DNA from: a virus
Lineage: Duplodnaviria; Heunggongvirae; Uroviricota; Caudoviricetes
IMG/VR virus record: IMGVR_UViG_2721755711_000002
DNA: 64,000 nt
Direction: 5' to 3' (one strand)
The position numbers were made by a program, and so were the translations under genes. Under the pieces are notes generated by a model that saw nothing but the letters and a program-made list of their open reading frames with translations, searched no databases and was not told the origin of the DNA. Positions 13,165 to 13,713 of this stretch are shown here, one piece after another (the stretch's first letter is position 1; every line of letters starts with the position of its first letter).

Positions 13165-13191
13165 GTGAAAAGACAGCCCCGAAAACGGGGC
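13165..13191 (-). terminator. Rho-independent terminator for the 13200-13532 gene
   Basis: Hairpin GCCCCG-TTTT-CGGGGC then U-rich tract on the minus strand. Confidence 0.5.
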
Positions 13192-13199
13192 CGGATTTA

Positions 13200-13532
13200 C
13201 TAAGCACCAATAATTCTGAAGATGTAATCCTTGAAGATGAGAGCCAGAGCGGCAGCAACAATAAACCACTGGAGTCGATCAAACTTGGTTTCCAGTTTGT
13301 CCAGACGCTTATCAACAGATATTAGCTGGTTTTGTAAAGAATTAAAGCGACTATCGACCTCACGACGCAAGTTATCAACGTTGTCCTGCGAAGAATTGAA
13401 TCGACTATCAATTTCACGACGGAGGTTATCAACGTTTTCTTGTGTTGCCAAGTGTTGCATGTTCTGCTGGCGATGCAACAAAGCATTCAGCACATCGCTG
13501 GTGCTGAACTCAATTTTTTTGTCGTCACTCAT
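13200..13532 (-). CDS. Coiled-coil protein with C-terminal transmembrane anchor (moron; possibly XhlA-like)
   Basis: 110-aa ORF with AGGAGG site, own terminator, opposite strand to flanking operons; C-terminal WFIVAAALALIF hydrophobic helix. Confidence 0.6.
   Translation of the reverse strand: MSDDKKIEFSTSDVLNALLHRQQNMQHLATQENVDNLRREIDSRFNSSQDNVDNLRREVDSRFNSLQNQLISVDKRLDKLETKFDRLQWFIVAAALALIFKDYIFRIIGA
13337..13444 (-). repeat. Imperfect in-frame 54-bp tandem repeat (2 copies)
   Basis: Encodes VDNLRREIDSRFNSSQDN / VDNLRREVDSRFNSLQNQ. Confidence 0.6.
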
Positions 13533-13713
13533 GCTGGCCTCCTGTATAGGGAATCGTGGTACAGGAAAAACCTGTTAAGTAAATAGTAAAGTTAATCGCT
13601 TCACTCATCAAGAGAGGAAGCACAGAAGCGGTTGACGACAACAGAAATCAGAGACAATATTGCCGCTCGCCAGCCTGAACAACTGGCACCTGCTGCGCCA
13701 GCAGAGAAAACCA

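Follow-up and report, generated by a model that had tools for sequence, protein, structure and literature searches.

The 64,000-nucleotide stretch of DNA analysed here (the window; virus record IMGVR_UViG_2721755711_000002, class Caudoviricetes) matches Escherichia coli RM11911 at 99.7% and contains, inserted in ompW, a complete lambdoid prophage; its integrase gene lies at 785-1915 and the 3' fragment of ompW at 45284-45409. We have identified in this prophage a gene for a 110-amino acid (aa), putatively tail-anchored coiled-coil protein linked to the DUF1640/CCDC90-like proteins (13200-13532, minus strand); in RM11911 it is annotated as 'hypothetical protein' (RefSeq WP_061351717.1). All neighbours annotated between 8190 and 15776 are encoded on the plus strand, opposite to it: these are regulators of the YdaS/YdaT type, replication genes, DUF977, DUF4406 and DUF551, then a 90-aa open reading frame (ORF), DUF968, RusA and Q. 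The slot, which follows the last of the replication/nin-like genes and precedes the block of small ORF, DUF968, RusA and Q, is most likely a recombination hot spot of lambdoid prophages.

The ORF is a genuine gene. A search of 5.8 billion proteins returned 77 homologues, and synonymous changes in the conserved end codons clearly exceed non-synonymous ones between E. coli alleles (10:2, 8:1 and 9:0, as examples), which indicates purifying selection on the protein. Conservation and the ratio of the two kinds of change together rule out a chance ORF. The complementary strand contains a 115-aa ORF spanning the entire gene (13231-13578, plus strand), which probably exists only because the coiled-coil coding sequence is repetitive.

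The gene is equipped with signals of its own. The Shine-Dalgarno (SD) sequence AGGAGG (13538-13543, minus strand) is located 5 nt 5' of the ATG; ACAGGAG of this region is invariant in nine of nine E. coli loci, and the sixth base of the site is C in the two loci with three-copy alleles of the stalk repeat described below. Further upstream we predict a sigma-70 promoter (13583-13611, minus strand), in which the -35 element TTGATG (13606-13611) and the -10 element TACTAT (13583-13588) are separated by a 17-nt spacer. Both hexamers are invariant in the nine loci, whose alignment shows about 95 nt 5' of the ATG to be essentially unchanged, with the conserved block beginning just 5' of the -35 element. 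This block is kept even in the loci with three-unit alleles, where the DNA farther upstream is unrelated and a Rem gene replaces the 90-aa ORF. Downstream, conservation ends at the stop codon, and directly 3' of it follows the gene's own intrinsic terminator (13174-13193, minus strand), an 8-bp GC-rich stem (CGGCCCCGTTTTCGGGGCTG) followed by TCTTTTC. It is conserved in seven loci, with other terminators in its place in two lineages; three lineages have three different intrinsic terminators at this position. Beyond it, a bidirectional terminator (12978-13008; hairpin AAAAACCCCGGA...TCCGGGGTTTTT with T-runs in both directions) terminates the rightward genes upstream and serves the gene as a second terminator behind its own.

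The original prediction, made from the sequence of this window, had described a self-contained moron on the opposite strand, with its own AGGAGG site and terminator, next to a bidirectional terminator, and all of these elements were found. The locus fits the classical concept of a moron, an autonomous accessory cassette, here composed of predicted promoter, SD sequence, ORF and terminator: besides its own terminator and the conserved promoter-like block, it has a deviating G+C content (42.6%, versus 49-53% in the flanks) and a patchy presence, being carried by only 5 of 5426 complete E. coli genomes. Its orientation is always opposite to that of the neighbours, both in every E. coli locus examined, where the slot is the same, and in a Salmonella prophage, where it lies in a different early region. 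The gene may be expressed in the lysogen.

Both flanks of the coding sequence have further features. In the invariant 5' untranslated region (13541-13566, minus strand), CCUGUA/UACAGG pairing can partly bury the SD sequence (minimum free energy -14.8 kcal/mol, z = -2.1), and an alternative leader hairpin, ACAGG-UUUUU-CCUGU, would expose it. On the other side, the bidirectional terminator and the gene's own one are separated by a conserved spacer of ~165 nt (13009-13173). Roughly 2000 E. coli records match its first ~140 nt at 80-96% identity and have nothing annotated there. The minus-strand fold of the spacer (z = -2.0) comes mostly from the terminator; its Rfam matches were sub-threshold only, and the Rfam scan of 12800-13800 as a whole yielded nothing but sub-threshold, terminator-driven matches. 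Judged by these data, the spacer could encode a small RNA or could merely be a common mosaic joint.

The encoded protein has three parts. Family alignments delimit a conserved N-terminal head (codons 1-27, DKKIEFSTSDVLNALLHRQQNMQH; 13452-13532, minus strand), followed at the start of the stalk by a candidate beta-layer motif, L-A-T-Q-E-N (codons 28-33; 13434-13451, minus strand). The stalk contains two 18-aa units recognised by repeat comparison, QENVDNLRREIDSRFNSS (13389-13442) and QDNVDNLRREVDSRFNSL (13335-13388), both encoded on the minus strand, and the protein ends in a hydrophobic tail, WFIVAAALALIFKDYIFRIIGA (codons 89-110; 13203-13268, minus strand), the putative membrane anchor. Among 35 diverse members of the family, H27, A29, T30, Q31, E32, F100 and K101 are invariant (H-x-A-T-Q-E motif at the N-terminal side), H27 even in remote relatives. 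The N-terminal module of the family reads DKKIEFSTSDVLNALLHRxQNxQH-LATQE-SVDNLRRE and the C-terminal one DKLExKFDRLQW-FIVAAALALIFKD/EY. The spacing of hydrophobic core positions is 3-4-4-3-4 (18 residues per 5 turns), with heptads after; across L28-A29-T30 it makes a six-residue jump, fitting a hexad, and then continues as 3-4-4. AlphaFold2, run on the monomer with the family alignment, predicted a single continuous helix for residues 11-109 (mean predicted local distance difference test score 77.5). The tail is the sole hydrophobic stretch of the protein; its Kyte-Doolittle values average 1.93 over 19 residues. From its composition it likely anchors the protein in the membrane, either as a full span stabilised in an oligomer or as a shallower anchor. 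As the anchor would be C-terminal and a signal peptide is missing, the head and stalk are expected to be cytoplasmic and not envelope-facing.

The two stalk units are encoded by a 54-nt in-frame direct repeat (13337-13388 and 13391-13442; DNA identity 83%), which Tandem Repeats Finder did not report at default scoring. The units are identical in 15 of 18 residues, in accordance with the coiled coil with an 18-aa tandem duplication that had been proposed, and differ at 11 of 54 nt; the duplication is therefore old and maintained, and not a recent slip. The suggestion that the repeat could vary in copy number was also confirmed, as alleles contain one copy (strain 04-00955, 93 aa), two copies (the window) or three (129 aa). 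The prophages with the three-unit allele (loci L019-L021) additionally carry LT-II-like enterotoxin genes (LT-IIB, Enterotoxin_a and Pertussis_S1 domains) downstream of Q.

Variation of this kind is not restricted to the 18-aa unit. Other members of the family have stalks composed of the heptad DKRFEQV (2 to ~10 copies, in Photorhabdus), of the 11-aa unit RRETKEGIDTI or of the 12-aa unit MEQETERRFNKL, and E. coli-type alleles occur in 12 lengths between 92 and 130 aa. Among 76 sequences, the distance from motif to tail takes 22 different values from 31 to 115 residues, whereas motif position (residue 20-31) and tail length (17-26 residues) hardly change in them. Head and tail are strictly conserved across genera and the stalk is free to vary, which argues that the ends carry specific interactions.

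The 77 homologues are distributed over six genera: E. coli, Salmonella, Photorhabdus, Erwinia, Serratia symbiotica and Vibrio. The gene was found in none of the 50,697 phage records searched, and copies exist on plasmids and chromosomes; a conserved structural phage protein, the finding named in the original prediction as one that would speak against it, is thereby ruled out. In Photorhabdus, many species of which possess the family, the homologue occupies one chromosomal locus in the assemblies read, where it immediately follows icd (phoQP-purB-...-icd-gene; loci L005-L007, 8001-8396), and in an enterobacterial metagenome-assembled genome it adjoins dusA (locus L026, 7001-7342). Since phages and islands preferentially integrate at icd and dusA, the Photorhabdus and metagenomic copies may be domesticated relics of mobile elements. 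In Erwinia tracheiphila the gene lies among insertion sequence elements, 25 nt upstream of a HicB-like gene.

In Vibrio the family gene, there also variable in length (about 78-103 aa), belongs to the backbone of 45 plasmids from V. parahaemolyticus, V. owensii and relatives, which we take to be of the pVA1 type; many are from shrimp with acute hepatopancreatic necrosis disease. ArdC comes immediately after it on the same strand, then an anti-restriction gene, and genes for a DinI-like protein, topoisomerase III and MobC are nearby. GC-rich hairpins lie just upstream of the plasmid gene, and a sigma-70-like promoter was not found upstream of it. The spread over prophages, plasmids and chromosomes shows the cassette to be mobile cargo of several kinds of element and not a phage-specific function.

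This distribution bears on two explanations for the benefit of the gene. One is superinfection exclusion or abortive infection, in which the membrane-anchored protein would block the entry of incoming phage DNA or kill infected cells. It would account for a stand-alone prophage gene that has its own predicted promoter and terminator and is independent of the lytic operons, and the patchy, rare occurrence is typical for defence cargo. Addiction-type modules are present in the slot or its vicinity (hokD in loci L003/L004, RelBE-like genes near the repressor), and the hypervariable stalk could mean an arms race. However, similarity to known Sie, Imm, Cor, Abi or PADLOC families was not detected beyond coiled-coil noise (JetC, LmuB), and the matches among PHROGs are to families of unknown function. 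The predicted topology would place the conserved head in the cytoplasm, the gene keeps one chromosomal locus by icd in the Photorhabdus assemblies read and is present in many species, and the plasmid neighbours in Vibrio (ArdC, anti-restriction, DinI-like) represent establishment functions, not defence. The likeness to superinfection-exclusion or envelope-acting proteins seen in the original prediction has thus found no counterpart among exclusion or defence families and is somewhat disfavoured by predicted topology and plasmid context; we regard exclusion as a rather unlikely explanation, though it ranks first among the alternatives.

The same plasmid neighbours make an establishment or anti-defence factor conceivable, which would be produced soon after a plasmid or phage enters the cell and, from the membrane, sequester or block a host defence or SOS component. 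The position directly upstream of ArdC in the 45 plasmids, with anti-restriction, DinI-like and MobC genes close by, is in line with the enrichment of plasmid leading regions in anti-defence genes (PMC11541004). In the E. coli prophages, by contrast, the gene opposes the early operon and is not obviously an early lytic one; moreover, no known anti-defence protein was found to be similar, and chromosomal copies exist in Photorhabdus. Such a role appears improbable to us.

The proximity of hokD, which adjoins the gene in two loci (L003/L004), and of the HicB-like antitoxin gene in E. tracheiphila could also point to a small membrane toxin of a toxin-antitoxin or addiction module that acts via its hydrophobic tail, the conserved charged K-D pair of which could face the lumen of an oligomeric pore. 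A partner gene conserved across contexts is nevertheless absent, the conserved cassette leaves no room for an antitoxin, the Rfam scan revealed no antisense RNA family between 12800 and 13800, and a long conserved cytoplasmic head with a stalk is atypical of type I toxins. This makes a toxin very unlikely.

Searches of Pfam, NCBIfam, PADLOC and PHROGs with the window protein and 35 relatives gave nothing above curated cut-offs. Sub-threshold matches to DUF16, Syntaxin, JetC, LmuB and Apolipoprotein are to generic coiled-coil families; the PADLOC match to PDC-M49B (E=2e-4) was dismissed as it spans 19 residues only, and influenza HA2 and other coiled-coil PDB matches were dismissed as compositional. 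We compared the family with DUF1640/CCDC90-like proteins (PF07798; Pfam gathering threshold 33.5 bits), including prokaryotic and phage members, human MCUR1 and CCDC90B, and yeast Put6/Put7. These are small proteins in which the head is N-terminal, the coiled-coil stalk opens with a beta-layer motif and the membrane anchor is C-terminal (PMC4786415, PMC7519068), a plan which the window protein putatively shares.

The first line of evidence for a relationship is the motif. In DUF1640 membrane proteins the stalk starts with the beta-layer consensus [aliphatic]-A-T-K-[polar]-[D/E], and the beta-layer proteins described are all trimers except the pseudo-threefold monomeric SLH domain (PMC4786415). 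L28-A29-T30-Q31-E32-N33 agrees with this consensus at four of six positions. The top match of the family profile among solved structures was PDB 6h9l, an 'Uncharacterized protein' (E=5e-5), in which HLATQESVDNLRRE was paired with EMATKEDIEALRKA, so that the motif is aligned to MATKED; the single window sequence gave weak matches to 6h9l and to the beta-layer construct 5apz, a GCN4-Tcar0761 alpha/beta coiled coil (E 0.1-0.2). The alignments to 6h9l and 5apz cover the A-T-K/Q-E motif and the following heptads only, without head or tail. We take 6h9l to be part of the structural study of MCUR1/CCDC90B, an identity that is presumed here. Comparison with 25 phage DUF1640 proteins by hhalign (E=1e-4) aligned motif to motif (VATKRD) and tail to tail.

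Remote relatives extend this connection. Two successive searches, the first with a profile against 1.84 billion representatives, recovered proteins from Campylobacterota, Methyloprofundus, Colwellia and metagenomes with the consensus TQKDLxxxLLHxxQHxATREEL...KxDRLxW...FKD. PF07798 was the top Pfam match in seven of the ten scanned, at 25-33 bits and therefore below the gathering threshold, with matches spanning profile positions ~74-168, i.e., motif, stalk and anchor without the head.

Evolutionary continuity with recognised DUF1640 members is apparent also from a natural chimera and from a shared location. Protein P0206 is 51% identical to the DUF1640 protein P0078 over residues 1-79, through the head (E=1e-21); over residues 42-104, which comprise stalk and tail, it shares 52% identity with the window protein (E=5e-23). 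A canonical DUF1640 gene of 95 aa (P0098) occupies the same slot in other lambdoid prophages of E. coli; like the window gene, it is set backwards and has its own terminator. Phage DUF1640 proteins also share the repeat-expanded stalks, with 11- and 18-aa units and total lengths of 74-172 aa. The two kinds of gene, which thus recombine and use the same slot and orientation, co-occur as well. In a Salmonella prophage (locus L016, likewise L017), a family member (6001-6375, plus strand) and a true DUF1640 gene (6372-6671, minus strand) are convergent with a 4-nt overlap, which raises the possibility that the two proteins work together; the tail of this DUF1640 neighbour also has a short core, of ~15 residues. 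In Vibrio plasmids the two genes are 3 kb apart (3796-4065 and 6986-7264 in pVP120-1 of V. parahaemolyticus, locus L032), within the block that holds the DinI-like, ArdC, anti-restriction, topoisomerase III and MobC genes. A tblastn search of the window found no canonical DUF1640 partner.

A 12-bp near-palindrome, GTTGACGACAAC (13631-13642), overlaps the -35 element of a predicted rightward promoter upstream of the window gene (TTGACG-18-AATATT, 13632-13661). It is present also 5' of the canonical DUF1640 allele in other prophages, though the flanks differ. As the window contains a single exact site, and hence no sign of a regulon, it was rejected as an operator.

Several observations weigh against assigning the window protein to this superfamily as a membrane-anchored product of an autonomous cassette. 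PF07798 is missing from the Pfam matches of the window protein and its close relatives, which leaves them formally outside the family. The motif departs from the beta-layer consensus at two of six positions, with Q for K and N or S for D/E. The head of 27 residues is shorter than the ~40-residue DUF1640 head (F-D-T-x-K-F-V-x-x-L-E-x-x-G...Q-A-x-A), the canonical form of which is not recognisable; alignment of the heads by hhalign had near-zero confidence, the local alignment beginning at the motif. The hhalign probability for the match to phage DUF1640 proteins was just 57%, and coiled-coil composition inflates such scores. The apolar core of the tail comprises only 12 residues, K101, D102 and R106 fall within its 19-21-residue window, and the summed free energy of insertion is positive. 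The single C-terminal transmembrane helix of the original prediction consequently stands as far as a sole hydrophobic segment is concerned, whereas a regular membrane span is plausible but marginal. The predicted promoter, finally, agrees with the consensus at 8 of 12 positions, which is why it did not appear in the list of the automatic scan.

Further differences are the family motif L-A-T-Q-E-N/S as compared with V-A-T-K-R-D of the phage DUF1640 proteins and the distinctive DRLQW...FKD/EY signature of the tail. Taking both sides together, the comparison of sequences makes it quite probable that the family is a head-variant branch of the DUF1640/CCDC90-like superfamily. In the literature searched, no function is reported for bacterial or phage DUF1640 proteins, and searches on the protein accessions, on phage DUF1640 function and on tail-anchored prophage proteins yielded no functional data.

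Other membrane proteins have a similar build. XhlA of Bacillus PBSX and ElaB, YqjD and YgaM of E. coli are of similar size and share the layout, a helical or coiled-coil part in the cytoplasm preceding an anchor at the C-terminus. ElaB-type DUF883 appeared in none of the family searches. The resemblance to XhlA, with its N-terminal coiled coil and C-terminal hydrophobic segment, suggests a lysis-related membrane protein of the XhlA, holin-accessory or spanin type, and 3 of the 35 members matched the PHROG 'hemolysin' family phrog_1193 (best E=6e-7; 0.06 for the window protein). These PHROG matches are, however, driven by heptad repeats, and there was no significant match at the level of the family. 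The window gene lies outside the lysis cassette: holins and endolysin are encoded at 18744-19951 on the plus strand, 5 kb away from a gene on the other strand with its own predicted promoter and terminator, and lysis genes are missing from the plasmid and chromosomal loci. A role in lysis is the least credible of the explanations considered.

Borrelia Bdr proteins (KID-repeat family, cp32 prophages) resemble the family in being prophage- or plasmid-borne, with an own promoter, inner-membrane association and a repeat region (PMC10016077, PMC4370689), and some of them are labelled DUF1640 by NCBI. They differ in the KID/KIE repeat unit, the phylum of the host and the gene neighbourhood; the likeness is one of architecture. 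No function of Bdr proteins is reported in the literature searched.

The prophage harbours other likely accessory cargo. A 159-aa hypothetical protein is encoded on the opposite strand directly after Q (15821-16300, minus strand), another of 148 aa is encoded on the opposite strand in the early-left region (5827-6273, plus strand), and a RelE/RelB pair (7172-7645, minus strand) is located beside the repressor gene.

Overall, the best explanation, in which we place moderate confidence, is a backward accessory cassette encoding a tail-anchored, DUF1640/CCDC90-like coiled-coil protein of the inner membrane. The short hydrophobic C-terminus would be inserted in the inner membrane, and an alpha-helical, probably trimeric coiled-coil stalk would project from it into the cytoplasm. 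The 27-residue head and the L-A-T-Q-E beta-layer motif may constitute a docking surface that holds some partner, if there is one, at the membrane. The stalk may act as a length-tolerant spacer assembled from recombining 7-, 11-, 12- and 18-residue units, with head and tail being kept. The benefit of the gene could consist in exclusion, in establishment or anti-defence, or in membrane scaffolding; the probability remaining beyond the alternatives weighed above goes to a scaffold role of unspecified kind.

A broader and distinctly speculative reading, to which we give little credence at present, is that the window family and the phage and plasmid DUF1640 proteins form a widespread, unrecognised class of 'membrane stalk' factors of mobile elements, which would operate at the cytoplasmic face of the inner membrane and exclude foreign DNA, incoming or resident, or aid its establishment. 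Interchangeable heads would then provide target specificity and the fast-evolving stalk length would serve as a ruler, and hetero-oligomers might form where both genes co-reside (the Salmonella prophage, the Vibrio plasmids), as with MCUR1/CCDC90B and Put6/Put7.

The locus is a well-defined gene and not a new mechanism; its main value is in the link to DUF1640, the shared slot and the allelic series. DUF1640/CCDC90-like proteins occur in settings as distant as human mitochondria (MCUR1) and phages. The family described here is a sister family outside all current models: its head differs, the plan of stalk and putative anchor is shared, and chimeras with canonical DUF1640 proteins exist in nature. 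Both are interchangeable single-gene cargo at one prophage slot, and both are also plasmid-borne. Because alleles with one, two and three units exist in nature, the role of stalk length is directly testable. If a phenotype were found, it would provide an annotation for hundreds of 'hypothetical' genes, including those on pVA1-type plasmids of shrimp-pathogenic Vibrio and in prophages with LT-II toxin genes.

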